The notes: generated by a model from the sequence alone, not told the origin. A DNA stretch of 19,985 nt from Deltaproteobacteria bacterium (GCA_033763315.1 JANRKS010000010.1:1-19985); one strand, 5' to 3'. Positions 1,654 to 19,500 are shown, counted from the first letter of the stretch. Numbers and translations are program-made.

Positions 1654-2502
1654 ATGGCAAATGAACTCCCCCTCGCGGGCCGCGTGATTGCGCTTCCTGA
1701 AACCCGCGAATTGGATCGCTTGGTGGCGCTGCTGGAGGCCGATGGCGCCACCACACTCAGCTGCCCGTTGGTTTCAATTGTCGACGCTCCGGATGGAACA
1801 GCTGTGGACGCTTGGCTGCACACGCTGGCCACGGGCGGCTTTGACGACTTGATCTTTTTGACAGGCGAAGGCCTGCGTCGCTTGTTGGCACGGGCTGAAC
1901 GTATTGGTTTGGCAGCCGAAGTTTTGGCGGGATTGCGGCAGGCTCGTCGGATCACACGCGGCCCCAAGCCGGCGCGCGCGCTTCACGAGCTGGGGCTGGC
2001 CACCGACGTGCCCGCCTCCTCACCCACCACCCAAGGCATCATCGATACTTTGTCGCCGATGGATTTGTCCGGCCGCCGCATCGGCGTGCAGCTTTACGGC
2101 ACCGATCCGAACGAACGTTTGATGTCGTTCTTGCAGCAAGCCAAGGCCATTGCCACGCCGGTGGCGCCTTACGTTTACGCGCCCGCGTCTCACGAAGACA
2201 AGGTGGCCGGGCTTATCGAAGGCCTGGCCAGCGGCGCCGTGGACGCGATCGCGTTCACCAGCGCGTCTCAGGTGGATCGTTTGTTTGCCGTCGCAGAAAG
2301 CCGGCAATTGCTCGATGTGCTGCAGGCGGGCCTCGCGCGCTGCCAGGTGGCGTCCGTGGGCCCCATCGTCTTTGAAGCCCTAGCCGATCGAGGCGTAAAA
2401 ACCGACATCATGCCGGAGAAGAGCTTCGTCATGAAGCGCCTGACCAACGCGATGGCCGAATCGTTGGGGCGCACCACACTCGCCCAAGCGAGTGAGCCCT
2501 AG
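1654..2502 (+). CDS. hemD: Uroporphyrinogen-III synthase (HemD) domain protein, NnaR/YjjA-like subfamily, 282 aa
   Basis: [69 protein letters not shown] are HemD-fold motifs. ATG 1654 avoids overlap with aguA. Confidence 0.85.
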
Positions 2503-4739
2503 GGGCCCGGGCGCGCCACCGACACGGCGCACGCCTTATACGCTGGCTGCCGCGAATAGGGATCGAACGCGGCAAACGTGAGCACGTTCATCTCTTCGTA
2601 GTGCATCGGCATAAACACCTGCCCCGGCTGCACGTTGTTGGTGATGAACGCGCGTGCGTCCACCATGCCCCGTTCCGAACGCACCTGCACCCATTCGCTG
2701 GGGGCGATCTTGAGCTTCTTGGCGTCAAGCGGTGAGATCTCAACGTAAAGGTCGCTGGGCGCAAGTTTGTTCAGCACCGCTGACTTCTTCGTGCGCGTTT
2801 GCGTGTGCCATTGGCTGCTGCTGCCGCGGCCTGTGAGCAGCGTAAACGGAAACCGCGCGTTGGCGGGCTCGGGCAACGCACGTGGCTCCTCGAACACAAA
2901 CTTGGCCTTGCCATCGGCGTGAAAGAAACGACCGTCCGCGAACAAACGGCGCTGCGCATCCGAGAGCGCTTCGCCTTCTTTAAGTGGCCACTGCACTCCG
3001 CCTTCGCGGTCCACCATCGTGTGATCTTCGATGCCGCTGATGTCACATGGGCGCCCTTTGGACAGCCGCTTGAGGATCTGGAACGCCGCCGCTGGGCTGG
3101 TCCATTCCTTGAACATCTCGCCGCAGCCCCAGGCTTCTGCCACCAAGCGGAAGATGTGGAAATCAGCCAAGGCCTGCCCTGGGGCGCGGGCCACGCGCTT
3201 CATGATGCCGAACCGGCGTTCGGAATTGATGAATGTGCCTTCCTTTTCACCCCACGCCGCCGCCGGCAACAGCAACGACGCGAACGCCGCCGTTTCCGTT
3301 GTGCTGTACATGTCCTGCACCACCAAGTAATCGAGGCGGCTCAGAATGTCTTTGGCGAAGCCTTGGTTGATCCACGAGTGCGCGGGGTTCGTGGCGATCA
3401 CCCACAGTCCCTTGATGTCACCACGCAAGATGCCTTCGAAGATCTGATCGTAGGCCCAGCTGCCCTGTGTGGGGATCGTGGCTGCATCGATGCCCAGGAT
3501 CTGGGCCACGTCGTTGCGATCTGATTCACTTGTGAAGTCACGGCCGCCCAACAAGTTTGTGGTGTTGGAATAAAGCCGCGAGCCCATGGCGTTGCATTGG
3601 CCCGTGATCGAATTGGCGCCCGTGCCTGGGCGTCCGATGTTGCCCGTCATCAGTGCCAAGTTGATCAGCGCCTGGGCTGTGCGCACGCCTTGATGGCTTT
3701 GGTTTACGCCCATCGTCCACCAGAATGAAACGCGCTTGCCCGCGGCGATCAAATCCGCGAATTCGGTGATCTGTTCTGCCGTCAGCCCCGTTTCTTTGGT
3801 GGCGCGTTCGAGCGTGAACGCCTGCACGTGCGCTTCAAACTCCGCAAACCCCGTGGTGTGCGCGGCCACAAACTCACGTTTGATTTGGCCACGTTCAACC
3901 AGCAACCGCGCCACCGCATAGAACAACGTCAGATCCGACTTTGGCAGGGGCGCGTAGTGATGGGTGGAAGCCATCGCCGTTTCGGTGCGGCGCGGATCCA
4001 CAACAACGATGGCGGGCTTGTGCTTGTTGCGCACGATGCGCTCCCACATGATCGGGTGCGCAATACACAAATTAGAGCCCACCAACACGATCACGTCCGA
4101 CTCTTCAAAGTCTTGATACGTATACGGCGGTGCATCGAAACCAAACGCTTGTTTGTAAGCCACCACGGCCGTGGCCATGCACTGGCGGGTGTTGCCATCA
4201 CCATGCACCATGCCCATGCCGAACTTGGCCACCGATCCCAACAGTGCCATTTCTTCGGTGGCGATTTGTCCGGTGGAGATGAACGCCAACGCCTGCGGCC
4301 CGTGCTTCTCCGCAATGGCTTTGAAGTTGCCCACCATGTGGGCCATCGCCTCTTCCCACGACACGGGCACCAACTTGCCCTTCTGTCGCACCATCGGTGT
4401 GGTGGCACGATCGCTCGCGCGCAACGGCGTCAGCGCTTCCCACCCCTTGGGACACGCCATGCCCAGGTTCACGGGGTAATGCGTGTTTGGCGACAGGTTC
4501 ACGGCTTCGCCGTTTTTGATGTGCACGGTAAGGCTGCAGCCCGTCGAACAAAAACCACACGTCATATTGGTGGTTTGATCGGGTTTGAGGCGCGCCGGCA
4601 CTTTGCCCAAGCCAAACGAGGCCGGCTCCAACAGCAAATCACGCGTGAGCGCGCCGCTCTTGTTCACCAGCAAGTCTTCAGCTTTGTGCCGCCACGACGC
4701 ATCCGTTGGGGCGCCCGCGGGGTCGGACTTTTCAGCCAT
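2499..4739 (-). CDS. nasA: Molybdopterin nitrate reductase catalytic subunit (assimilatory NasA/NarB type), 746 aa
   Basis: N-terminal [12 protein letters not shown] [4Fe-4S] motif, [76 protein letters not shown]. Lies in an operon with nirBD. No twin-arginine signal seen. Confidence 0.9.
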
Positions 4740-6472
4740 TACTGCAAGCCTCCGGGCATCCTTGACCCCGGTGCCGCGCGAAAGAACAAATAGCGTTCGG
4801 TCAATTCACCCACCATCAGCAAGCCCAGCGACAGCACCGCACCCACCACCGCGACCGAGGCGTTCGGAACGCTGCCTTGTTTCGCGCTTAACGCTAGCAG
4901 CGGCAAACCAACCCCGCCTGCCAGGCCCGCGGCAAAACGCAGGAAACTGAACTTGGCCAGTTCGCCCGACATCAGCAGCGCCATTCGTCGCAGCACCGAA
5001 TGATGGCGAGCGTTGCGATGCCGGAACACACCTGCCTCGAACAACATCTTCATCACCGACAAGCCAACCACCGACATCAACAGCGCTTTGATCACCGCCG
5101 GGGCGCCCCCCGTGGCGGTGGCCACAGCGGCCACGGCGGCGGCGCCCAAGATCAAGGTGGTGCAAATGAACTTCATGCCGGTGATGGCGCCGCTCCAATG
5201 GGCGCGCTTGGTGGCCGCATAAACCATCACCGAACAAAACACGCCCAAGGCGCCGGCGCCTGCCGCGCCATAGCGAATGAGGGGAGCCGCCCTCAACAAC
5301 ACGTCTTTGCCCGGCACAGCGGGCCACAGATGCGGCACCAAGCACACGGCATACAGCAACCCCAAACCAGCAAACGCACCGAACGCCAAGATTTCACGGC
5401 TCAACCACGACGTGCGCAGACCCAAGAACGCCTTCCACGCGTGTTGTGGCCGCCCCAAGTGAAACACGCTGGCCGCGATCGCCACAAAGCCCAGCCCCAG
5501 CGACAACGCCGCTTGCGCCAAGGCGCCACCGGCCAACTTGCCTGCCCAGGTATCCACCAACGTGGCCACCGCGAACGCGCCCGCCGCCAATTGCGTGAGC
5601 GTCAGCATCACCACCAACGGCGGGTGCGAATGTTCGGGGTGCGCGCTGTAAAAATCCGCCGGCAACATGTTCCCCGGCAGACCACGCTTGGTCTTGTAGA
5701 CCGTGGTGGGCATCGTTTGATCGGGGGCCGGCGCGCCAGGCAAGAACGTGCCGGCTTCACCTCGTTGCACTGATTCGGACACATCCACAACCGCGATTTT
5801 GATTGCGCCGTTGGGGCAAGCCTGGACGCACGCAGGCGCTTCACCCACCGACAATCGATCGCTGCACATATCGCACTTGCGCACGATGCCCAGCTTCGCG
5901 TTGTACTTGGGCGCATCATACGGGCACATCAGCGAGCAGTACTGGCAACCGATGCACTGGTCGTCCAGATGCTTGACGATCCCTGTGACAGGATCTTTTT
6001 CGTAAGCTTTCACAGGGCAGCCCAACATGCACGCGGGCTCCACGCAGTGATGGCAGGACGTGGTCACGGTTTGTTGCGCTGGCTCCTTGGCCGTGCCGCC
6101 GTGAAGCAAGCCCACCGTGCGCCACGCTTCGTTGTCATCAAGGCCGTTCAAGCTGTGGCAAGCGGACACGCACGCCTTGCAGCCCGTGCATACGTCCATG
6201 TCCACCTCAAACGCGTATTGTTGCCCGGGCTCTGGTTTCGCCAGTGGCAGCAAGTCACGATAATATCGCGCTTGGGCGGGCACACCGCCGTTATCGTGCA
6301 GACGCGCAAATGCGGTGACCGCCGTCAACGTTTGCTGTTCGGCCAGCAGCCCATCCAACAACGTCAGCCGCGGCGCTTTCGCTTTGCCACCACCAAGCAC
6401 TTTGAGCGAAGCGGATCGAATGGCGGGCGCAGCCCCCGCGGACTCTTTGCCCAGCGTGGCGGCGTCGCTCAT
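4739..6472 (-). CDS. Fusion of DmsB/NrfC-like 4x[4Fe-4S] electron-transfer domain and DmsC/YnfH-family membrane anchor (~577 aa)
   Basis: Four cluster motifs: [49 protein letters not shown]. These are followed by several hydrophobic helices with DmsC signatures ([46 protein letters not shown]). ATG 6472 overlaps the nirD stop (ATGA) and its TAA overlaps the nasA ATG (TAATG). Confidence 0.88.
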
Positions 6473-6825
6473 TCGGCGTCCGCGCGGGGCGAAGACAGTT
6501 CGCCCGCCAATACCTCCACGCGACCCTCGTTCACACGAACCGAATACGTGGGCAAGACCACCGCCGGGTCGTCCAAACACACGCCTGTGCGCAGATCGAA
6601 AGATTGCTTGTAAATCGGTGACGCCACTTTGGTCACCCCGGCCCTATCGCCCACGATCCCGCGCGCGATGACGAAGGCCTTACTGAAGGGATCGAAGTTA
6701 GACAGACCAAAGAATTCGTCGCCTTTGGGCGATCTCACAATGGCCACTTGTTCCCCCTGCACCAAAGCGGCCACGCCCGTGCCTGGAACCACATCACTGA
6801 CTGAACAAACCGAAACCCAATGCAT
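6469..6825 (-). CDS. nirD: Nitrite reductase (NADH) small subunit, Rieske-like
   Basis: WVSVCSVSDVVPGTGVAALV..QVAIVR..LSNFDPFSKAFVIARGIVGD..VASPIYKQSFDLRTGVCLDD. GGGAG SD-like motif upstream; directly downstream of nirB. Confidence 0.95.
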   Translation of the reverse strand: MHWVSVCSVSDVVPGTGVAALVQGEQVAIVRSPKGDEFFGLSNFDPFSKAFVIARGIVGDRAGVTKVASPIYKQSFDLRTGVCLDDPAVVLPTYSVRVNEGRVEVLAGELSSPRADAE

Positions 6826-6860: not shown

Positions 6861-9428
6861 TTAGCCGGCCGAGGCGCGCTTACGCAGCGGCACAAGGCGC
6901 TCTTTCTCGTCCCAGAAAGCGGGGCGGTGTTGCTCGCGCTCTTTGACAAACATGATACTCGGATCGGGCGCATCAGAGTTGACGAACGAGCGGAACATCT
7001 TGCGCTTTTGCGGATCTTCCACCGCTGTTTTCCATTCGCACTGGTACGTGTCCACCAAGTGCTGCATCTCGGCTTCAAGTTCTGCGGCCAAGCCCAGCGA
7101 ATCCTCCACGATCACTTGCTTTAAGTACTTCATGCCGCCCTCCAGGTTGTTAAACCAGGTGGCTGTGCGCTGCAGACGATCGGCGGTGCGCACATAGAAC
7201 ATCAGAAAGCGGTCCACGTACTTAATCAGAGTGTCCTCGTCCAAATCGGAGGCCAAAAGCTGTGCGTGTTGAGGCTTCATGCCACCGTTGCCACACACGT
7301 AAAGGTTATAGCCCTTCTCCGTGGCGATGATGCCGAAGTCCTTGCTCTGGGCTTCCGCACACTCGCGCGCACAGCCCGAAACCGCGGACTTGAGCTTGTG
7401 CGGGCTGCGCAAGCCCTTGTACCGGTTCTCTATGCGAATGGCCAAGCCCACTGAATCTTGCACGCCGTAACGGCACCATGTGCTGCCCACGCAGGATTTC
7501 ACGGTGCGCAGAGCCTTGCCATACGCGTGGCCCGACTCGAACCCCGCGGCAATCAGCTTCTCCCAGATGCCCGGCAACTCTTCCACACGCGCGCCGAACA
7601 AATCCACGCGTTGGCCACCCGTGATCTTGCAGTAAAGGTTGTATTCCTCGGCCACCTGGCCAAGTGCGATCAGCTGCTTCGGCGTGATCTCGCCGCCGGC
7701 CACACGTGGCACCACAGAGTACGTGCCATCGCGTTGCACATTGGCCAAAAAGCGATCGTTCGAGTCCTGCAGACCCACGTGGCTCGATTCAAGGATGTGT
7801 TCGTTCCACGTAGAAGCCAAGATGCTGGCCACGGCGGGTTTGCAGATCTCGCAACCCAGCCCCTGCCCGTGCGCCGCGATCAATGCGTCGAAGCTTTTGA
7901 GCTTGTTCACCTTCACTAAGTGAAACAACTCTTGGCGCGTGAACTTGAAGTGCTCGCAGATCCGGTTGTCCATGACGACGCCGGTTTTCGCCAGCTCAGC
8001 CTTGAGCAAGGGCGCAAGCAGTGTGACGCAAGAGCCGCAGCCTGTGCCGGCCTTTGTGCAGCCTTTCACGTCAGAAACGGTGGATAAGCCTTGCGTCGTA
8101 ATGGCACCGCAAATTGCGCCTTTGGTCACGTTGTGGCACGAACAAATGATCGCCCCTTCGGGCAGGTGCTCTGGCCCCATGCCCGCGGGGGCCTCACCCG
8201 AACGGGCTGGCAAGATCAGTTCTTCAGCGGCGCCTGGCAACGCCACCTGGGCCTGCACCAGCGCCAACAATTGGCTGTAGCTGCTGGCATCGCCGATCAA
8301 CATGCCGCCCAAGAGAAACTTACGGTCCTCGCTCAACACCAGCTTCTTGTAGATGCTGGCCACCGAATCGTAAAACGAGATCACGTGGGCGCCCGGCGTC
8401 TTGGCAAACGCGTCGCCGAAGCTGCCCACGTCCACGCCCATCAGCTTAAGCTTGGTGCTCATGTCGAACCCCAAGAAGCGATCCTTCTCGCTGGCCTGTT
8501 CCAAGATCTGCAGCGCCGCCACTTCGGCCATCTTGTAGCCGGGGGCCACCAAACCGAAGATGCGGCCATCGTAAAGCGCGCACTCGCCCACGGCGTAAAT
8601 GTTGGGATCGCTGGTTTGGCAGGTCTCGGTGACGACGATGCCACCCCGCGGGCCCACGCTGAGGCCAGCGTCGCGCGCCAACTCGTCGCGGGGACGGATG
8701 CCGGCCGAAAACACGATCATATCGGTTTCAAGCGAACTGCCATCGACGAAGTGCATGCGGCACACGGCGCCCGCTTCGTTGCGTTCGATGCGGCTTGTGT
8801 TCTTGTTGGTGTGCACCTTTACGCCCAACGATTCGATCTTTTGCCGCAACAGCGCGCCGCCGACATCATCCACCTGCAGCGTCATCAAGCGCGGCGCAAA
8901 CTCCACAACGTGGGTTTGCAGGCCCATGTTCATCACGGCGTTGGCGGCTTCAAGCCCCAACAAACCACCACCGATCACCACGCCGGTTTTGGACGTCTGG
9001 CTGTAGGCTGACAGCGCCTCAAGGTCGTCGATCGTGCGGTAAACAAAGCAACCAGGGCCGTCTTTGCCTTCGATCGGCGGCACGAAGGGGAAAGATCCCG
9101 TCGCGAGCACCAACACGTCGTAAGGCACGCGCTCGCCAGTCGAGGAAAGCACTTCCTTGGCTTCGCGATCGATCTTAACGGCCTTCTCTCCGCACCGAAC
9201 GTTCACACGGTGGCGTTCGTAAAAGCCTGGCGCCACAAGCGAAAGATCTTCCGCTGTCTTGCCGTCAAAGAACTTCGACAGATTCACGCGGTCGTAAGCC
9301 ACGCGCGATTCTTCGCAAAAAGTGGTGATCTGATAGGTCTCGTTGGCCCCGCGGTTCACAAGCACATCGATCAGCTTGTGCCCCACCATGCCGTTGCCCA
9401 CGACCACCAGATTTCGCAAATTCTGCAT
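6861..9428 (-). CDS. nirB: Nitrite reductase (NADH) large subunit, siroheme/FAD, 855 aa
   Basis: FAD and NADH sites (VVVGNGMVG, YDRVNLS, VIGGGLLGLEAA), BFD-like CSCHNV..AGTGCGSC, CEH..GCEICKP, siroheme-[4Fe-4S] motifs KSCVGSTWCRYG and SGCARECAEA. Confidence 0.97.
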   Translation of the reverse strand: MQNLRNLVVVGNGMVGHKLIDVLVNRGANETYQITTFCEESRVAYDRVNLSKFFDGKTAEDLSLVAPGFYERHRVNVRCGEKAVKIDREAKEVLSSTGERVPYDVLVLATGSFPFVPPIEGKDGPGCFVYRTIDDLEALSAYSQTSKTGVVIGGGLLGLEAANAVMNMGLQTHVVEFAPRLMTLQVDDVGGALLRQKIESLGVKVHTNKNTSRIERNEAGAVCRMHFVDGSSLETDMIVFSAGIRPRDELARDAGLSVGPRGGIVVTETCQTSDPNIYAVGECALYDGRIFGLVAPGYKMAEVAALQILEQASEKDRFLGFDMSTKLKLMGVDVGSFGDAFAKTPGAHVISFYDSVASIYKKLVLSEDRKFLLGGMLIGDASSYSQLLALVQAQVALPGAAEELILPARSGEAPAGMGPEHLPEGAIICSCHNVTKGAICGAITTQGLSTVSDVKGCTKAGTGCGSCVTLLAPLLKAELAKTGVVMDNRICEHFKFTRQELFHLVKVNKLKSFDALIAAHGQGLGCEICKPAVASILASTWNEHILESSHVGLQDSNDRFLANVQRDGTYSVVPRVAGGEITPKQLIALGQVAEEYNLYCKITGGQRVDLFGARVEELPGIWEKLIAAGFESGHAYGKALRTVKSCVGSTWCRYGVQDSVGLAIRIENRYKGLRSPHKLKSAVSGCARECAEAQSKDFGIIATEKGYNLYVCGNGGMKPQHAQLLASDLDEDTLIKYVDRFLMFYVRTADRLQRTATWFNNLEGGMKYLKQVIVEDSLGLAAELEAEMQHLVDTYQCEWKTAVEDPQKRKMFRSFVNSDAPDPSIMFVKEREQHRPAFWDEKERLVPLRKRASAG

Positions 9429-9451
9429 ACGTCTAGTGGTACCGCTTTGCC

Positions 9452-9578
9452 GTTTCGCGGGCGTAAACAGACCGTTAAATACGAGTATAAATGCGCCGTT
9501 ACTGGACTCGTAAACTGCATTGTTTCACCCGGGTTTCGGCGTGCGTAACCAAGTTGTTTCACGCGAAGGCGGCGTAAC
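9452..9578. promoter_or_regulatory. Phased array of GT(A/T)(A/T)(A/C) pentamers upstream of nirB; candidate GlnR/OmpR-type operator
   Basis: On the + strand, GTWWM starts at 9452, 9463, 9474, 9485, 9498, 9510, 9522, 9533, 9545 and 9556 (spacing 11-13 bp), plus an off-phase copy at 9574. On the nirB strand several read GAAAC, GTTAC or GTAAC. A TATACT -10-like hexamer sits on the - strand at 9484-9489. Confidence 0.55.
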
Positions 9579-9816
9579 TGTGGGGGGACTGGGATATGTC
9601 CTTGTGTCACAGGACGGCAGCTTGACCCTCGCTGGGGAGCCGACGTCTCAACGGGGTTACAGGATTGTTGATTGGGTTAGCCACGGCGGCGACAGCAACC
9701 TATTGGAAACCCCTTCATTTGGCCAAAACATGCGTGGGCCGCATAAATTTTGATAGACCCCGACTTTGACGGTGTGATAAGCGCGAGTCTCTATTGCTCA
9801 GCACTTGAGGTCTCTT

Positions 9817-10449
9817 ATGAAAATTAGCCTGGCCCGAGTCCGGCCACCGACTGCACATACGTTAGCGTTCCTTTCGCTGTGTCTTCTTTACAGCCACCAC
9901 GTGAAAGGGGCATTGCGAGAGTTGCCGACATCGAACGAAAAGGCGAAAGGGTCTCAACCTTTGCCGGGCGACCTGGGCCCATCGCCGAAAGCGCCCGAAA
10001 CCAAAACCAAGGATCGCCCCAAGAACGCATTGCATCCTTCGGCTCCTCGCACTGCCCGCACCGCAGAGTTGCCACCCGCTCCCGACGAGGCATGCGCCCT
10101 TGAATCGAAGAGTCTATGCGAAGGCGCCACGGGCCGGGCACTACACAGTTGCCTCGCGCGGCACTCCGACGTGATGTCTCGGCTCTGCAAAAGTGCATTT
10201 CGCCCCTACGTCGTAGCGCTTGTGCGGTCAGCTTGTCAGTCGGAACTACCACTCGTATGTGGCGGAGCGGCGAGCATGGACGCGATTTCCTGTCTCAAAG
10301 AATCAACGGCGATGTTGTCGATGCCTTGCAGAGCCGCGCTGGAACTGTGGCCAGCCCATTTGGGCAACGATTCCCCTTCGGCCCCTGAGATGAGGCAGAG
10401 CCCCCAACATGGCACTGCATCCGGGACGCCTAAGGGAGGCGCCCAATGA
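9817..10449 (+). CDS. Probable secreted protein with two cysteine-rich repeats (GLG1/Cys_rich_FGFR-like), 210 aa
   Basis: GAGG SD at 9807-9810 before ATG 9817. Basic-then-hydrophobic N-terminus (MKISLARVR..LAFLSLCLLY), Pro/Lys-rich linker, then two C-x7-C-x10-CL-x10-C repeats. Its TGA overlaps the next ATG. Confidence 0.7.
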   Translation: MKISLARVRPPTAHTLAFLSLCLLYSHHVKGALRELPTSNEKAKGSQPLPGDLGPSPKAPETKTKDRPKNALHPSAPRTARTAELPPAPDEACALESKSLCEGATGRALHSCLARHSDVMSRLCKSAFRPYVVALVRSACQSELPLVCGGAASMDAISCLKESTAMLSMPCRAALELWPAHLGNDSPSAPEMRQSPQHGTASGTPKGGAQ

Positions 10450-10517
10450 CCGCTCTGTCACGAAGTCCACTTCCGCAGTTTCTGCTTTGCGCATTCGTAT
10501 TGCTCGCCGCGAATTGT
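10446..10517 (+). other. Probable Sec/lipoprotein signal peptide of the giant protein (Cys24)
   Basis: MTALSRSPLPQFLLCAFVLLAAN-C: a hydrophobic core ending in a Cys (10515-10517). The lipobox is non-canonical (Asn at -1). Confidence 0.55.
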
Positions 10518-13500
10518 GGTCGCAGAACGGATGTGGCGCATTCTCCTTCGGGAGCCGTCACTCAAGCTGTGACTGTGGCACAGGCATTTCCGGCGATACC
10601 TGGCAACGGCGGCGAGTTCGCCAAAGCCGTTGCGATCTCGGGAAACTTGGCATTGGTTGGCGCCCCTGGCGATACAAACCCAAGCGGAGAGTACACGGGT
10701 GCCGCCTACGTGCTCGAGCGGCAGCCGGATCAAACTTGGCTTGTAAAGCAGAAGCTACACCCTCCTGCTTCCTCCGTTGATGGCATTTCAGGTCAACGAT
10801 TCGGTGAATCCGTAGCTATTGATGGCGACACTCTCTTCGTTGGCGCCCCTCTGCGACCCGAAGACGGTCAGCCGAGAGGGTTAGTGCACGTTTTTGAGCG
10901 TGAGACGCAAGAAGGATCCTATTGGGTGGAGGATACGACTCTAGGGCAAACCAGGATCTTGACGCCGCACGAGTGGTCGGTCACTGGTTCGCAGGTGGCG
11001 CCAGGTGTGCAGTGGCGACAAATGGGCCCCATGGCCGTGAAAAACGGCGAGTCCTGGACAGTGACTATGAATGGTACAGGCGACGCGGACCTTTTCACCC
11101 GTCGAGGTGCGTTGCCGATGGCGTCGGCGGGGGCCTACGACTGCCGACCGTTCAATGGCAGCTCCAACGAAGCTTGCTCGCTCCTTGGTGTGGGCGAGCA
11201 TTACATCGGTGTTCGAGGCGACAGCGCATACTCCAAGGTCACAATTCAAGCCACCCTCCCCACCCGCAGCGTTGCGCTCAAGGAAGATGCGGTCTTCGGC
11301 CCCTTCACCGTAAAGAATGGCCAGCGACTGCGTGCACAAATCACGGGCACTAACGATCCCGATCTCTATATCCATGCGGCACCGACCCGTACCGATCCCT
11401 CAGCACCAACAAGCTTGAACGCGCTGTTGGTCGTGGGCGCAAACACCTTGAACGCAGCAGATCAAGTGATCCGTGATCGCCTTGTGTCGCTGGGTTACCA
11501 GGTCCAGGTCGTGGATGACGACGCTTGCACCACATCGGATGCCGATGGCAAGCGCATCGTTGTGGTGTCCGAATCGTCTCAATCAGCCAAGATCCTCAAC
11601 AAGTACGAAAGCGTAGCCGTGCCTGTTGTGGCAATGGAAGTGGCTATCTGGGACGACATGGGTATGACGGCAGGCGGTTGGCAGCAAGATTACGGCGATG
11701 CGCCCGGCACCAACACACTGTCGATAACATCAAGTTCGCATCCCTTGGCAGCTCAGCTTTCAGGGAACGTCGTGATTTCAAGCGGAGCGTCCAAAATCAT
11801 GTGGGGCCGCCCCAGCGCCTCAGCCCAAATTGCCGCCACTTTGCCAGGCGACGTCACCAAGGCCACCATCTTCGCCTATACCACCGGCGCCGCGATGGTA
11901 AACGGTGTAGCGCCTGCGCGCCGGGTGGGGTTGTTCGTGGGTGATCCAACCGCGGCCTCGTTCACCACCGCAGGAGGCAGGCTGTTTGATGCGGCCGTTA
12001 TCTGGGCAACACGCAAAACGGACGCGCTCCTTGTTGCAGCCACCATTCCACTGTCACACGCAGACGACGTGATACGCAGTCGAATGACAGAGCATGGCTT
12101 TTCGACGCATTTGATCACAGGCCAAGAGGTGCAGCTTAGCCACACCGTGGGCAAGAAACTGGTGGTGATATCTGAGTCCACAAGCTCAGGCACCGTCGAC
12201 AACAAGCTTACTCAATCTACAACGCCGATCGTTTCACTTGAGCCCGCGCTGTTCGATGAGCTGGGCATGACTGCAAACACGTGGCTCGCAGATTTTGGTG
12301 ATGTGAGCGGGCAGAGCACGATGGTTGTTACGAACGGCAACCATCCGCTTGCTGGTGGATTCACCGGTGCGGTCACTATGACCTCAGCGCCAAGCAAGTT
12401 TATTTGGGGCGTCCCCAACGCCAACGCCGTTTCCATTGCGCACGCCAGCGGTCAGAATCCCGCTTCTTCGGTTCCAGCATCTTCAGCTCTTACGATATTC
12501 GGCTACGACAAAGGGTCGTTGATGTTTGGCCTTTCCGCACCCGCGCGCCGCGTAGGCTGGGGTGCCGGCGATGGCACGGCTTCCGTCTTGACCGCCGACG
12601 GATGGAAGCTTTTCGCTGCCGCTCTCGCGTGGGCTGCAAGTCAACCCGCTGACTGCGAAGGCAACCCCTACGCAGCGGGCTGCAGCTCCCCGCCACCCGC
12701 ACCCGAAGAACCCGACCTCGGTGTGGCCGCTGATTGCGTTTCAGCTTCATCGAGCGCGACTGAAATGTGCACCACCTCGAAACCAGGAAGCTACTACGTC
12801 ACCGTGCACGGCTACAGTGCGGCGACGTACGATCTGCAGGTATTCTTTGAACCTGGCCACGATAACATCACGGCGGGAGGAAGCTACGCGATTCTCGGCT
12901 CCGATGTTTCCGCAAAATCAGGGGTCGTGGCAATTGCTGCCCCAAACGTCTTCGACAACGGCGCTGGCTACGTCCACGTCCTTCGTAAGTCTCACGGAAA
13001 CTGGAAACTAGAGCTGTCACAGAGAGACCCAAGCGCACAAACCACGGGCAGCTTCGGCTCGTCCGTTGCCGTGACAGGTAACCGTTTGGTTGTTGGGGCC
13101 GTCGGCGGCAGAGGCCGGGTGCTTGTGTTCGACTACGATGGAAAGCGGTGGAGCCAAAACGCGAAAACCTGGGAAAGCGCTGACGTCTACGGCACCGACG
13201 GCATGGGCCAAGTCGTGGCCGCGGACGGAAATCGAATCGCGTTTGGTCTCCCCGGAGCGGCAGGCGGCAGAGGCCAGGTCAAGGTTGTGGATTGGACCGG
13301 TGATGGATGGCAGGAGCTCGATCTGTTGAACCCGCAGGGCACTGCCAGTGTTGCGTTCGGCAGCTCCCTGTCGCTCTACCAAGGTCAAATAGCGGTGGGT
13401 GCGCCCGTAGGAACGAACCCAGGCACAGCATACCTATTCGCAAATGTTGGCTCTACGGAGCCTGCAGTCTACAGCCCTACAAACGCAGCAGATTGGGCCG

Positions 13501-16500
13501 ACGTGGGTTCGGCCGTTGCGCTTGGGCCGCTGGCGATGTTGGTGGGCGCGCCCAATGATGGCGTGGAAAACAAAGGCGTGCTCTACGCTATCAAACCATA
13601 TCAAGATGTCTGCGCAGCGTTGGCGAATGGCAGTGCCTGCGAGGATGGCAATGCCTGCACCACGGGTGACACTTGCCAGGCAGGCGCTTGCGTTCCGGGC
13701 AGCGGCCGATTGACCTGCGACGACGGCAACGTGTGCACCGCTGATTCTTGCACTGCCGAACTCGGGTGTGTTTACGACACCAAGCGACCAGAGCAAGAAC
13801 AAACAAGCTGCAACATCACGGGCTGCGGCGCAGGCGTTTGCGCCGCAGGCGCGTGCGCGGCGAATGGATCCGACGCAAATCCCATGTGCAAGCTGCAGCC
13901 GCGCGTCACTTGCGTTGTCGGCCTACCTGACGGCGGCCACCGAGCAATCTTCGGCTACACCAATGCAACAAAGCCAGGTCTCAATCTAAGCATTCCTGTC
14001 GGCAGCAATGATACCGTAGCCTTCAAACGCAACGTTGTGTCCGGAGGACATGCCGCAGAGCAGCCGACGTGGATACAGTCTGGTACGGAGCCGATCGCCT
14101 TCTCGGTCGACATTCCCCCGGGCGGCCAGGCGGTCACATGGGCGCTTGGAAATAAAGTCGCCACAGCCGAGCCCGCCGTGGATGGAAAATGCAACCAGGT
14201 CGACGGCCCCGAAGGCAAGTCAATCGCGTTGAACGGACGAAGCTTACTCATCAAGCCCGATGCGACTAGGATCGCGGCCAACGCCCACCTGGCCACCGGA
14301 GGCCCGATCGGCCCCCTTGCCGGGAGTGGCGACGTTTCCAGCGACGGCAGTTACCAGTACGAGATCCCCATTTGGGTACCGCCCGGAACCAACGGTATGC
14401 AGCCCTCATTGGCCCTCTCCTACAGCAGCCGGGGAGGTAACGGATTGTTGGGCGTGGGATGGTCGCTTAAGGGCTTTTCGCAAATCACCCGGTGCCCCAA
14501 AACGCTTCGCACCGCCGGCGAGGTTCGTCCAGTTAAGTACTTGGGTGACGACGACCAGTTCTGCATGGACGGAAACCCGCTGGTTAGGTTGGCCGACGGC
14601 ACCTATCGAACACAGATCGAAACGTTCTCCAAGATCGAACAAACCGGAACCGGCACGTCGATGAGCTGGCGGGTATCGACCAAGGACGGGAGGATCCTAA
14701 CGTTCGGCCATGACAACGTTCGCAGGCGGTTTCTTACACCCACCAACCGGGTTGGTGCGTTGTCGTCCGAATTCGTGCCTGCTTGGTGGCTCACATCCAC
14801 CCGCGATCGATTTGGTAACGAAATAGCCTACGACTACTCGAACGGGAATGGCCCCAACGCTGACGAAGCAGCGTGGACGCTTGAACGCTACCCAACACGC
14901 ATCCGCTACACGGGTCCCCAGTTTAGCCGTGAAGTGGTCTTCAAACACGAGGATCGTGCAAGTCACGACGTGCTTGAAACTTACGTCTCCGGCGTGAGGT
15001 ACGTGACCACGAAACTTCTAACCGCCGTTGAGCTACGGGTTAAGAACGAGAATGGCTTATGGTCGTCGGTGAAGGAATACCGCTTGCACTACGCGCCGAA
15101 TGCGGGCAATGGGCAGGCGGATTGGTCGCAGACGAGCGGACGCAAGAGCATTACGGGCCGCGCACTGATTGAAAGCGTCAAAGAATGTGAAAGTTCAGCG
15201 GCCGAGGCCAAATGCGGGCCAGCCACGACCTTTGATTGGGAAAGTGGCTCCTGGAACTTTGAACGCAAAGAACTGGGCGGCACACTGCCCGCAGACCAAG
15301 CGTTGCTAGGGCTCTCTGACGTCGACGAAGACGGCAAGCCAGATCTGATCATTGGCGAGCACACGGACCGGGACTTGTGCCCCACAATCGGTCTCAATGT
15401 CTACGCGCCTATCACCAGCATAGGCAATGACGGAATCAGGTACGGTTGCCAGCAGCGGCGGCCCGACGGGACCTTTCCCGACTATCAAACTTGCCAAGAG
15501 AAAGACTCTGGCGACTCGGCGGTGCTCAGCGGTACGCAGCTCTGCGACGTTTATAACCAGTGCGACTACGACGAGTATCGATACGCGCAGGGTAGTACGT
15601 GCGCCAGTAATCCTTGGCAGACTCTGGTCGTGGCTACCCAAGCCCAGTGGGCCAAGTACAGTTATCGGAGGAACAAGTCTATCCTGCAGGCGGGAAACCT
15701 GTCGGTGTCATTAGAAAGCGCCACGCCACTTGTGGACAAATATTTCAGAACGGGCGCCGTCGACGAAGGTTATCTTCCGTCCCCCGTCGTCACGAATCTT
15801 GATGCACAAGGCACAGCCGACGTGTTGGTGGTCGAACAAGAGCCACGTCCTGAGGCGGCCTATCTTGGTAAGTTTGACGACGACTTCATCAACGAGTATC
15901 GCATAAATCTCGAAGCTTGGCCGGTAGGATCATCGAACGATTCCGCCATGAAACTTCTCGGGTTTGTTGACAAGCCAAGTGACATTGAGGCGTTTCCCCC
16001 GGCGTCGGTGGCGGTTGGAGACTACAACGGCGATGGCATCCCGGACGTCTTGTTTCCGAGCGGCTACAGAAGTGCCTTCCTGAACCAGGACTGGCATTGG
16101 TCGATTGCCCTCGGTGGGAGTCAAACGAGCCAGCGAGTGAAACCCATCTTGGGTGATGAGAAGGAGCAAGAAGAAGCGACGTTGCTTGACGTCAACGGTG
16201 ACGGAACCGTTGAACTTGTCACGTGGATGGAGGACGGAAAGCCAACGTCACCGGCCTTCGGTCTAACCTTGAATTTGAACAAGAGCCCCACCTTCGTTGA
16301 CTTCAACGGCGATGGCCTGGTGGATGCACTTGATCGCGGCAAGGTTGGCAGCCAAGACGGCCGCACCATCTTCATAAACACCGGGCTAAGAGCCATCGCG
16401 AAGCACCACTTTGGGACGGCGCACCCCACCGCGTACCTCGCGCCAGAACCGTCCATCATGGACGAGGGCGTGCGCACGGGCGACTTCGACATGGACGGAC

Positions 16501-19500
16501 GCAGCGACGTCATCATGTTCGGTGGCGGATGGGACAAGGGCAATTCCTGGACGCCAACTGTCCTACTGAACAAGGGCAGCGAAACAAGGACGATCGATCT
16601 TGCCAACCTACCTTCGGGGGCCGGACGCGTGCGTCGAGCACGGCGTATGTTGGGCAAGTCCAACGATAAATTCTCGTCAGCCGGCTGGCGACAAGCACAC
16701 GTTGCCGATTTCGATGGCGATGGCCTTATGGACATCGTGCAAGTTGACGAAGACGGTACGTTGGCCCTTTACCGCAGAACGGGCACCAAGCCGGACTTGC
16801 TGAAGTCCGTCCACCGCGGCGAATCACCCATTGTTGCAGCGGAAGTAACCTACAAGGCCATCACAGATACGTCCGGCTCGTATATAAAGGCCACCTGTGA
16901 GGGCAATCTCTCCGCGCCCTGCAATACAAAGCAACAGCAGCTCGCCAACACAGGTCTGTGGTTGGTTAGCCGGTTGACAACTGATTCAGGCGAAGACGAA
17001 GGCCGCAGCAGCAATGGCAAACGCCGACACGTTTACGCCTATGCAGACGCGCGCACGGACCGCGCTAGCGGCACGTGGTTGGGTTTCAGAATCTTCCGAG
17101 ACATAGATCAGGCCACCGGAGAAAGTCGCGAGGTGGAGTTCCTGAACGGCTCCGCGAACACGAATGCTCAAATTCCCTTCGCTGACTCACGCTTCGGCTT
17201 CACTTTGGCAGGCAAAGTAAAGCGAGAAGAGATTCGCGTTCCGGGGGCTAGTGGCACGAATGTGACCCGCAAAACGTTTGATTATGAGTTTAAGACCTTC
17301 AACGAAGGTCAAACAGGGTTGGTCAGAACAAAGACCGCGCGCACAGAGGTGGAAGATCCGCGGCAAGTCTCCTGCCCTGGCGTCAGCAACGTGTCCGAGT
17401 CCGTTGTTACGTACATTCAAAACGGCCCCGGCGCATTGACCGGTGAGGTGCTGACAGAAACAACCACCAAAGCGCCGGGCGCCGGTTGCCAGCCGTCAAA
17501 CATTCGAAGGCATGCCACCGAAGTTGTGTCGAACACCTTCACCTATCACAACGAGGATCAAACAAGCTGGATTGTCGCTCGCGTCAAGGATGCTGAAAAG
17601 ACGGTGACTGTGCAGGCCTCAACAACCAACGGCACGGAGACGACCTCGATAACCAACAAGTCGCGCATCGAGATCGACCCGGTTACGGGCATGGTGAAGA
17701 AGAGCATCACGGAACCAGACCGCGTCAACGAACGTTCCGAGCTTGAATACGAGTATGCAGCCGGCACAGGTCTGCCCGTGAAAGTGACGACGCGAGCTCC
17801 CGGCGTTGCGGATCGCTTCGTCGTGACTTCTTACGATTCGTACGGATTTGTGCGGCACACTGAGAATCAGTTGGGGCACAAAGCGGAATCAATCGCTGAT
17901 CCGGCAACGGGCCAGGCCGTGTGGTCCCGTGACATGAACGGCGCCATCACTCGGCGTTACGTGGACGGGTTTTTCCGGGAGGTCCGTACCGAAGCGCCTT
18001 CATCTGTTCTTGGTGCTTATCTTGTGACAGCCAATGATTACCAAGCTGGCCCCAGCAATCAGAGGCCTCGCCAGGTGGTGACCAGCTCGTACGTGAGACG
18101 ACCGGATGGCACCGAGACCTTGCTGAATTGGTCGATGTCGGTTCTAGATCGTTTCGGTCGGGCTGTTCTAGCGAAGGTCCGAAACTCCAAGGGGCAGGTC
18201 TTGGAGTCCGAGAAGATTTTCGACTGGCGCGGGTGGTTGAGATTCGAAAGCGTGCCCTCAGTTGACCTTGGCTCCCTTGGCTACGCTGCGCATGATTACG
18301 ACGAACTGGGGCGCACGATATCCGTAACGGCCCCCGACGGCGCCACCACCACCACCCAGCGCAGTGAACTGCGTGTTCGCGTAACGGATCCCGATGGTCG
18401 AGTGCAAGAATCCATAACCGACAGCCTGGAGCGCGTGTGGAAGACCCACGCCATCGACAATGCGGGCAGCAGCGTGGGCAGCATGACGTATACCCACGAT
18501 GCGGCTGGCCGGCTCATCACGTCCACCGATTCGCTGGGCAACCGAACCGTTATGACCTACGACGTTTTGGGAAGGCGGCTCACGTTGCTCGATCCCGACG
18601 CGGGCCTGGTCTCCACCGAATACAATGGCTTAGGCGAAGTGACTTCGGAAACCACCGCCGCGGGCGCCACCACAACTTTCGTTCGCGACGTTTTGGGGCG
18701 AACGTTGGAAGAGGTTGTTGTGGAAACGGCGAATGCTGAAAGCGGGCGCCCTGCCCGCACCCGCAAAACGACGTTCACCTTCGATGCGGCACCGAACGGC
18801 ATTGGTAAGCCTGAATCGTCTGTTTCGTATGACGGCGTGGTGAAGGCCTATGGCTACGATGAATTGGGCAGACCCGTCGCGGAATCAACGGTCAAGGCCA
18901 ACGAAGAGTTCAGCGTGCACCGCACGTTCGATGAGGCTGGCCGCTTGGACGTTGTGACATATCCCGAGGTTCGCGGGCCGGCGCAGGAAGACGGCTTGCC
19001 TATTCAAACCCGAGTTCGATACGCATACAATGCCTTCAACAGTTCGTTGGCACGTGTCTCTGATCCGGACACAGATGCTGAATACTGGCGGGTACTTGAC
19101 CGCGATCAGCAAGGCCATGTCACGCAGGAACGATTCGGCAACGGCGTTGTCTCCACGCGCAAATGGAACCTACAGCGGCAGTGGATGACGGGGCTCAAGA
19201 CGACAGTGGACCGCGCGGTGGGCAATCAGATCCTGCAAGAGGCTGCGTATGCGTATTCGGATGGCGGCCAATTGCGCAGCAGATTTGATGCGCAAGCCGC
19301 AGGCGGTGCGCTGAGGGAAAGCTTTCACTACGACGCGCTCAACCGCCTCACACTTTGGTGTGTTAACGATCCTGAACTCAATTCAAACGACTGCACCCAA
19401 TCGCGCTTCGGCGTTCGCTACGACTTCACCGACAACGGCAACTTGACCGAGCGCAGAACATTCGCCAATGGCGCCGTCAACACGCCGCTTGAGTCGATCT

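Follow-up and report, generated by a model that had tools for sequence, protein, structure and literature searches.

A ferredoxin–DmsC fusion paired with a Nas-type reductase beside nirBD: a putative cytoplasm-facing menaquinol:nitrate oxidoreductase in a deltaproteobacterium

A DNA stretch of 19,985 nucleotides from a Deltaproteobacteria bacterium (GCA_033763315.1, JANRKS010000010.1:1-19985; hereafter the window) contains four tightly packed genes on the minus strand: nirB, nirD, a gene for a 577-aa fusion of a four-cluster ferredoxin with a DmsC-type membrane anchor (P0001), and nasA, a gene for a 746-aa molybdoenzyme (P0002). The favoured reading, with a probability of roughly 0.68, is that P0001 and P0002 form a two-polypeptide, membrane-bound and cytoplasm-facing menaquinol:nitrate oxidoreductase that feeds NirBD and serves nitrate assimilation. 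Textbooks divide the prokaryotic nitrate reductases into three systems (Nar, Nap and Nas). Nas enzymes are usually fed by NADH (through NasC or NirB) or by ferredoxin, and subunits of the DmsB/DmsC type link molybdoenzymes to the quinone pool. An earlier note on this DNA had proposed a quinol-fed nitrate reductase distinct from all three systems; sequence analysis was applied to the parts of the proposed enzyme, their conservation, topology and motifs, and the conserved pairing of the two genes.

The first of the four genes is nirB (6861..9428, minus strand), which encodes the 855-aa large subunit of NAD(P)H nitrite reductase and matched NCBIfam NF011565 at 1280 bits (cut-off 883) and TIGR02374 at 1113.9 bits, with the Pfam domains Pyr_redox_2, Fer2_BFD (two copies) and NIR_SIR. 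It is followed by nirD (6469..6825, minus strand) for the 118-aa small subunit (TIGR02378, 98.2 bits with a cut-off of 74.65; Pfam Rieske_2). The identities of both genes were unambiguous by Pfam and NCBIfam. NirD has a single His residue (H2), which allows no CxH/CxxH ligand set, indicating that it carries no Rieske cluster and has no role as an electron relay. The fusion gene (4739..6472) and the gene for the reductase (2499..4739) follow on the same minus strand. The nirD stop codon TGA (6471–6469) overlaps the fusion start codon ATG (6472–6470) as ATGA, and the fusion stop codon TAA (4741–4739) overlaps the nasA start codon ATG (4739–4737) as TAATG. The overlaps from which translational coupling of nirD, fusion and nasA had been read were thereby confirmed, and the open reading frames (ORFs) were as described.

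The fusion protein comprises a putative docking segment, a four-cluster ferredoxin domain and a quinol anchor of the DmsC type with eight transmembrane helices. Pfam assigned Fer4_11 and other 4Fe-4S families to residues of about 87–226 and DmsC (PF04976) to residues 285–564, the latter at 58 bits with a cut-off of 22.3, while the best NCBIfam match, DMSO_dmsB, scored 129.7 bits and was under its cut-off of 214.1. The four-[4Fe-4S] domain (residues 85–232; 5777..6220, minus strand) has 16 cluster Cys residues (95/98/101/105, 140/143/148/152, 173/176/179/183 and 200/203/215/219), all of which were invariant in an alignment of 43 fusions with 39–54 % identity to the fusion of the window. It is preceded by a family-specific segment, residues 37–72 (6257..6364, minus strand), with the alignment A1 consensus LxEQQxLTAVERFSxxH...YxxLIP. 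The membrane domain (residues 284–565; 4778..5623, minus strand) was delimited from a hydropathy profile, the Pfam DmsC match and the helices of an AlphaFold2 model, which span residues 284–310, 317–336, 356–377, 389–419, 428–453, 458–487, 506–532 and 538–565. This model had a predicted local distance difference test score (pLDDT) of 87.6 and a predicted template modelling score of 0.85. Foldseek matched its FeS half to PsrB (template modelling score 0.77), FdnH and ArrB and its membrane half to ActC and PsrC.

Pairwise alignment placed residues S62/H65/S82/E87/R271 of Escherichia coli DmsC at S335/H338/S355/E360/R560 of the fusion. Among the 43 fusions, H338, S355 and E360 were invariant, R560 was present in 42 and S335 in 28. 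A putative quinol site is thus formed by H338, S355 and E360 at the FeS-side ends of the second and third transmembrane helices (5393..5461, minus strand). The available part of a review of the NrfD family assigns the DmsC residues to the quinol site and states that H65 and E87 mutants block quinol oxidation (PMC8076601). A search of shorter proteins with the membrane half gave 166 matches at E <= 1e-10 among 8000 scored candidates. Most of these come from contigs shorter than 3 kb, probably as cut genes. Five, from contigs longer than 70 kb, may be anchors that stand alone, and the fusion is therefore not claimed to be universal.

The orientation of the complex was predicted from charge distribution and export signals. 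Since the FeS domain is fused before helix 1 of eight, its side of the membrane should also hold the loops that follow helices 2, 4 and 6 as well as the C-terminus. Summed over the 43 fusions, 729 Lys and Arg residues were located on this side of the eight helices versus 78 on the opposite side, with a bias towards the FeS side in every individual protein (43/43); the same count for E. coli DmsC, which has periplasmic partners, was 3 versus 5. A strict twin-arginine motif was absent from the N-termini of 90 reductases (0/90) and 93 fusions (0/93), taken from the longest possible ORF per locus, and from those of both proteins of the window, while an E. coli DmsA control was positive. The positive-inside rule and the missing motifs together predict that the FeS domain, quinol site and reductase are cytoplasmic, in agreement with the orientation proposed in the earlier note.

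The catalytic subunit consists of Molybdop_Fe4S4 (residues 56–100), Molybdopterin (111–535) and Molydop_binding (632–738) domains, and no BFD or flavin domain was detected by Pfam. Together with inspection of the N-terminus, this is consistent with the previous description of a NasA with one N-terminal [4Fe-4S] motif, no signal for twin-arginine translocation (Tat) and no BFD-like domain. The Cys residues of the [4Fe-4S] motif, termed FS0 (C61, C64, C68 and C96; 4452..4559, minus strand), were invariant in all 24 rows of alignment A2, as was the pair C187-M188. Cys187 (4179..4181, minus strand), within TRQ-C-M-A-T-A, is the predicted Mo ligand and aligns with the Mo-ligand Cys region of Desulfovibrio desulfuricans NapA. 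Residues 1–58 (4566..4739, minus strand) form a family-specific extension in which G29, T32, G43, L44, G45 and P48 were invariant in A2; it is missing from canonical Nas, mature NapA and Cetobacterium rows, which begin at the Cys motif.

Active-site motifs were compared with those of five annotated Nas proteins and, from E. coli, of NapA and FdhF. Every one of the 18 fusion-linked rows had TRQ-C-M-A-[TS] and I-T-G-Q-[CA]-N-A-M-G-S-R, while the same positions read C-M and T-G-Q-P-N-A-M-G-G-R in Nas and NapA and C/U-H and R-G-Q in FdhF. P0002 was 33–37 % identical to the canonical Nas rows compared, and in tblastn searches of plasmid records it had 31–37 % identity to annotated nitrate reductases, 28–30 % to fdhF and 27–31 % to napA, the last over less of the query. 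In a first quick tree of 28 rows, fusion-linked proteins formed one tight clade with a Cetobacterium protein as sister and the deep forks were left open. A second quick tree (24 rows) included nine of the 18 fusion-linked proteins, dropped DmsA of E. coli and Shinella Nas, and added haloarchaeal, Klebsiella and actinobacterial Nas as well as two NapA and two FdhF references. Here a branch with a support of 100 in the Shimodaira–Hasegawa-like approximate likelihood ratio test (SH-aLRT) united all 20 Nas, Nap and fusion-linked rows and left outside it three FdhF rows and a YdeP/Fdh-like protein of the host genome. The nearest named Nas was haloarchaeal NasA (support 91, not starred). The motifs and the second tree support the placement of the catalytic subunit as a relative of the Nas/Nap group, apart from formate dehydrogenases; a position outside the nitrate reductases, which would have contradicted the earlier proposal, was not recovered.

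The sister protein is encoded on a Cetobacterium somerae plasmid (locus L106, 5986-8998); as the outgroup nearest to the fusion-linked reductases it shows 44 % identity, and it lacks both the N-terminal extension and a fusion partner. Its gene is followed by one for an anion channel of the SLAC1/TehA type, with mobB and moeA close by. This locus may be another uncharacterised nitrate-reductase arrangement.

Association of the two proteins was modelled with the reductase and fusion residues 30–280, the part that precedes the membrane domain. The interaction score from predicted aligned errors (ipSAE) was 0.90 in three runs and 0.00 for the best of three controls, and the runs shared at least 90 % of contacts with a partner pLDDT of at least 84. 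In the model, the FS0 loop of the reductase (residues 92–101, with Cys96) meets residues 94–110 of the fusion, which hold its first cluster motif. The predicted interface also includes reductase residues 25–51 and fusion residues 38–49 and 63–70, so that both family-specific N-terminal segments sit within it. The complex prediction that had been suggested as a check therefore returned a cluster-to-cluster docking.

The fusion family was found to be large, with at least 7999 matches in a 90 %-cluster database (7999 of 8000 scored candidates) and 888 matches at E <= 1e-30 among 50 %-cluster representatives, the best 150 of which were mostly about 500–620 aa long and aligned over query residues ~35 to 576. 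A pattern scan of one genome per species confirmed at least 593 loci, and gene neighbourhoods were counted in the best 80 of these, all from other species. By record title, these 80 loci belonged to Sorangium and other Myxococcota, many Planctomycetota, Verrucomicrobiota, Vicinamibacterales and Candidatus Poribacteria, giving at least five phyla (Myxococcota, Planctomycetota, Verrucomicrobiota, Acidobacteriota and Poribacteria). A reductase gene, whose product was 62–71 % identical to that of the window, was located directly downstream of the fusion on the same strand in 79 of 80 loci; in the remaining locus the contig ends 48 bases past the fusion. Among fetched relatives the reductase adjoined the fusion in 13 of 13 and nirD or nirBD was next in 11 of 13. 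Recurrence of the pair in both sets indicates that the arrangement is not a chance juxtaposition, and the spread over several phyla agrees with the mention in the earlier note of similar arrangements in other phyla.

Nitrite reductase genes accompanied the pair in 63 of the 80 loci, with NirB in 54 and a NirA-like protein in nine, never together. This indicates that the module accompanies nitrite reduction whichever nitrite reductase is used. A CysJ-like flavoprotein was encoded beside the NirA-like gene in five of the nine NirA-like loci, and 35 loci encoded a transporter of the major facilitator superfamily (MFS). The CysJ-like and NirA-like genes lie side by side adjoining the module in these five (L051, L061, L063, L077 and L098), in place of nirBD, which suggests an NADPH-dependent nitrite reductase in the style of CysJI. 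An outer-membrane protein of the 'alginate export' family flanks 10 of the 80 loci (L093 and nine more of cluster 4) and, in Acetobacter, is annotated within a canonical nas cluster too (L112); it may be a nitrate or nitrite porin. Among other variants, one locus has two reductase copies downstream of one fusion (L094:11698-17050), and in another a second, distant MopB gene (31 % identity) lies on the opposite strand just after the reductase (L030:14058-16235).

The prevalence of the fusion module is patchy. It was found in 14 of 24 genomes of the family to which the host of the window belongs, two of them with it in two frame-shifted pieces, in none of 16 genomes from other families of the same first sample, and in 16 of 301 genomes, that of the window included, of an even sample of the phylum. 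At two loci (L021 in genome G011 and L022 in G022) the fusion, the reductase or both are seen as neighbouring pieces that lie in different frames, and in a third (L062:11704-13860) the stretch that matched the reductase contains an in-frame TAA at its codon 186. These split or interrupted genes could be decay or assembly errors.

The host genome, which is 90.85 % complete, contained no match to NarG (TIGR01580), no NapA over its cut-off and no second Nas-like gene. Two genes of the MqnA/MqnD family, belonging to the futalosine pathway of menaquinone synthesis, were over their cut-off and menA was not found. The only other Nas/Fdh-like MopB gene of the host (L105; G000:C31:87458-88855) was ruled out as a nitrate reductase: it has C-H and R-G-H motifs and groups with FdhF, as a YdeP/FdhF-type oxidoreductase.

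In the favoured reading, menaquinol or another quinol would be oxidised at the DmsC-type site of H338, S355 and E360, close to the first four-helix bundle's cytoplasmic face. Electrons would pass through the four [4Fe-4S] clusters of the N-terminal domain of the fusion to FS0 of the reductase and on to the molybdenum bis(molybdopterin guanine dinucleotide) centre at Cys187, where nitrate would be reduced to nitrite. NirBD, encoded just upstream, would then reduce nitrite to ammonium with NAD(P)H, and it is this step that points to an operon for nitrate assimilation. The fusion would stand in for the usual donor of canonical Nas (an NADH diaphorase, a ferredoxin or a flavodoxin), so that reducing power would enter via the respiratory chain and not through a dedicated diaphorase. 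Transfer from quinol to nitrate is strongly downhill. The reaction is probably electroneutral, because protons from quinol would be set free on the side of the membrane on which nitrate reduction takes protons up. Four elements of this scheme are inferred: that quinol is the donor, which way electrons flow, that the role is assimilatory and that the reaction is electroneutral. What the earlier reading predicted was borne out wherever sequence could probe it.

Several points weigh against this interpretation, which was built from sequence, models and context. The conserved DmsC residues point to a quinone site and not to a particular quinone or direction of flow. The ipSAE mark reached by the complex was also reached by 58 of 80 solved complexes and two of 110 mismatched pairs, counts that hold only roughly since custom alignments were used; and as solved pairs of MopB and four-cluster subunits exist (PsrAB, FdnGH and ArrAB), the docking result may reflect likeness to these and supports binding without proving it. 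No nitrate transporter gene is present in the window, and the best NarK-like gene of the host is on another contig and scored 226 bits with a cut-off of 311.7. No nitrite reductase was found in the available flank of 17 of the 80 loci, three of which have 10 kb on both sides, and a CysJ-like NADPH flavoprotein, a possible alternative donor, is nearby in six. The trees were both quick trees with SH-aLRT support only, no bootstrap and several long branches, which makes the Nas/Nap placement good but not final. P0002 was also under every NCBIfam cut-off, and its single best model was Fdh-alpha (493 bits, cut-off 666), followed by NasA_Halo NF041323 (458.1 bits, cut-off 1000) and NasC NF047855 (442.7 bits, cut-off 1100), with the NapA model NF010055 at 318.5 bits (cut-off 904). 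Its top solved relatives by sequence were formate dehydrogenases at 343 bits, with D. desulfuricans NapA at 316.

Formate dehydrogenases as both best NCBIfam model and best solved relatives by overall score, with no Nas equivalog cut-off reached, would fit a molybdoenzyme that acts on another substrate (formate, chlorate, selenate or an N- or S-oxide) and adjoins nirBD for another reason. This is very improbable given that both positions separating Fdh from Nas/Nap read as Nas/Nap (C-M and T-G-Q) in all fusion-linked rows, that the quick tree grouped P0002 with Nas and Nap and that a nitrite reductase of either type is encoded in 63 of 80 loci. A different possibility concerns the electron donor: the DmsC domain might only tether the reductase to the membrane, for example near a nitrate transporter, with the FeS domain fed by NirB, a CysJ-like flavoprotein or a soluble ferredoxin. 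NirB has FAD/NADH and BFD [2Fe-2S] domains, and in Paracoccus the nitrite reductase module reportedly feeds NasC; CysJ-like genes are present in the six loci mentioned, and solved complexes such as 7qv7 and 7z0s show four-cluster ferredoxins working with soluble formate dehydrogenases. A mere tether is nonetheless hard to square with H338, S355 and E360, which stay invariant in 43 of 43 fusions over a range of about 40–55 % identity. Moreover, the pair occurs with either type of nitrite reductase and persists in the three loci where 10 kb on each side contain neither NirB nor a NirA-like gene, and NirD lacks cluster ligands and offers no relay. We regard a tethering role as improbable.

The same complex could instead be mainly dissimilatory, a terminal quinol:nitrate oxidoreductase for nitrate respiration, dissimilatory reduction of nitrate to ammonium (DNRA) or redox balancing with NirBD, and maybe electrogenic. 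A quinol-fed enzyme is wired into the respiratory chain, the 90.85 %-complete host genome has neither a NarG match nor a NapA over cut-off, and NirBD also acts in fermentative nitrite reduction in enterobacteria. On the other hand, the module also adjoins assimilatory-type nitrite reductases, NirA-like/CysJ-like (9/80), and MFS transporters (35/80), and its named carriers are mostly aerobic heterotrophs. An enzyme whose quinol oxidation and nitrate reduction both take place on one face of the membrane would not separate charge by itself. Charge could be moved if quinol protons exited to the periplasm through a conserved polar pathway of the anchor around R560, which was kept in 42 of 43 fusions and is the counterpart of a mid-membrane Arg where, according to the available part of the NrfD review, two proton half-channels meet (PMC8076601). 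The same text describes these half-channels as poorly defined in anchors of the DmsC and SoeC types. A mainly dissimilatory role is considered unlikely. So is the related idea that a Nas-type subunit and an inverted NrfCD-type module make up a functional counterpart of NarGHI, an energy-conserving nitrate reductase that faces the cytoplasm; if true, members of the Planctomycetota, Myxococcota, Verrucomicrobiota and Acidobacteriota without Nar and Nap would use one enzyme both for nitrogen supply and for nitrate respiration or DNRA.

The remainder of the window was also annotated. A hemD-like gene for uroporphyrinogen-III synthase (1657..2502, plus strand; Pfam HEM4, 132.9 bits) is convergent with nasA, with four bases shared at the 3' ends. 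A HemD-like gene also flanks the module in six other loci (L018, L021, L038, L039, L042 and L102), and this neighbour is likely linked to siroheme supply of NirB. The plus strand further carries a carbon-nitrogen hydrolase gene cut at the window start (1–537) and an agmatine deiminase-like gene (534–1607; PAD_porph, 372 bits, below NCBIfam cut-offs), a pair that looks like an agmatine-to-putrescine route beside the nitrate operon. About 1 kb upstream of nirB (9429–10445) is of lower G+C content (0.557 in 9001–10000), and neither a sigma-70 or sigma-54 consensus nor an Rfam family was matched in it; a 214-aa ORF without a Pfam match lies at 9805–10449. A sigma-70-type promoter scan of 9300–10500 gave no promoter-like site, sigma-54 consensus matches numbered seven versus 15.4 expected by chance, with none upstream of nirB, and no Rfam family matched anywhere in the window at gathering thresholds. 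Positions 10446–19985 (plus strand) are occupied by a single ORF of at least 3180 aa that runs past the window end. It has FG-GAP, PPC, SpvB and RHS-repeat domains and resembles an Rhs/Tc-like surface or polymorphic-toxin-type protein of very large size, with its C-terminal end beyond the window.

No description of a Nas-type reductase with a DmsB/DmsC fusion came up in the papers covered by full-text searches, which included part of the NrfD-family literature. The available part of a MopB phylogeny states that association with canonical four-cluster or anchor subunits occurs nowhere in the Nas/NapA/AioA/Fdh clade, and argues from this absence for a single origin of subunit association (PMC7331816). 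The family of fusion-linked reductases is a counter-example to that statement. Cultured strains such as Sorangium cellulosum are among the carriers of the large fusion family. A later survey from the same group, in its available part, describes Nas only as cytoplasmic and assimilatory. If the favoured reading is true, the pair would be a fourth subunit architecture for nitrate reductases and the second inverted DmsC/NrfD anchor after SoeABC. Genes called 'nasA' in metagenomes of the phyla that carry it would then probably encode a quinol-linked enzyme, and the assumed reductant cost of nitrate assimilation would therefore change.

Of the known systems, SoeABC of Allochromatium vinosum and Aquifex aeolicus is the closest. 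The available part of the NrfD review describes it as having an NrfD/DmsC-type anchor in inverted orientation, cytoplasm-facing peripheral subunits and a quinone site on the N-side, and treats it as the only complex whose anchor is inverted and whose partners are cytoplasmic; no nitrate reductase is listed there (PMC8076601). SoeC is given in the same text with His65 like DmsC (PMC8076601). SoeABC also has a four-cluster FeS subunit and no Tat export. Cytoplasm-facing subunits on an inverted anchor are likewise predicted for the window system from its charge bias (43/43) and missing Tat motif. SoeABC has three separate subunits with a catalytic subunit of the SoeA type and passes electrons from sulfite to quinone, whereas in the window system the FeS and anchor parts are one polypeptide, the catalytic subunit is of the Nas/Nap type and flow from quinol to nitrate is expected. 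As to substrate, its motifs and its nirBD neighbours point to nitrate. DmsABC and PsrABC resemble the window system in combining a MopB subunit that has FS0, a four-[4Fe-4S] subunit and an eight-helix quinol anchor, with the DmsC site residues kept and the folds those of PsrB and PsrC. They face the periplasm and have a Tat signal on the catalytic subunit, whereas the window system has no strict Tat motif, an inverted charge bias, fused B and C parts and a catalytic subunit of the Nas/Nap/Fdh branch.

Canonical Nas, whether NasA/NasC with NasB/NirB or a NasC diaphorase, or the ferredoxin-dependent NarB and haloarchaeal NasA, shares with P0002 a cytoplasmic Cys-ligated MopB subunit, an N-terminal [4Fe-4S] cluster and active-site motifs, as well as clustering with nirBD or nirA and a transporter (the window itself has nirBD and no transporter). 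The reductase of the window differs in having a 58-residue N-terminal extension in place of a C-terminal one and, as predicted, a membrane quinol module as partner instead of a soluble donor. The earlier claim of a system distinct from canonical Nas thus stands for subunit make-up and does not extend to the catalytic subunit itself, which is still a relative of the Nas/Nap group. Membership of Nap is not indicated, P0002 having no Tat motif and being below the NapA cut-off. Resemblance to NarGHI would be functional, in a quinol-fed enzyme with a cytoplasmic active site that passes nitrite to NirBD, and the parts are unrelated: NarG is large and Asp-ligated, NarH is larger, and a dihaem cytochrome b, NarI, has an outer-face quinol site that makes the enzyme electrogenic. 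In mycobacteria, according to the available part of one report, NarGHI is used for assimilation with NirBD (PMC13332983). The comparison suggests a complex iron-sulfur molybdoenzyme built on a Nas-type subunit that would face the cytoplasm like Soe and work like the assimilatory NarGHI of mycobacteria.

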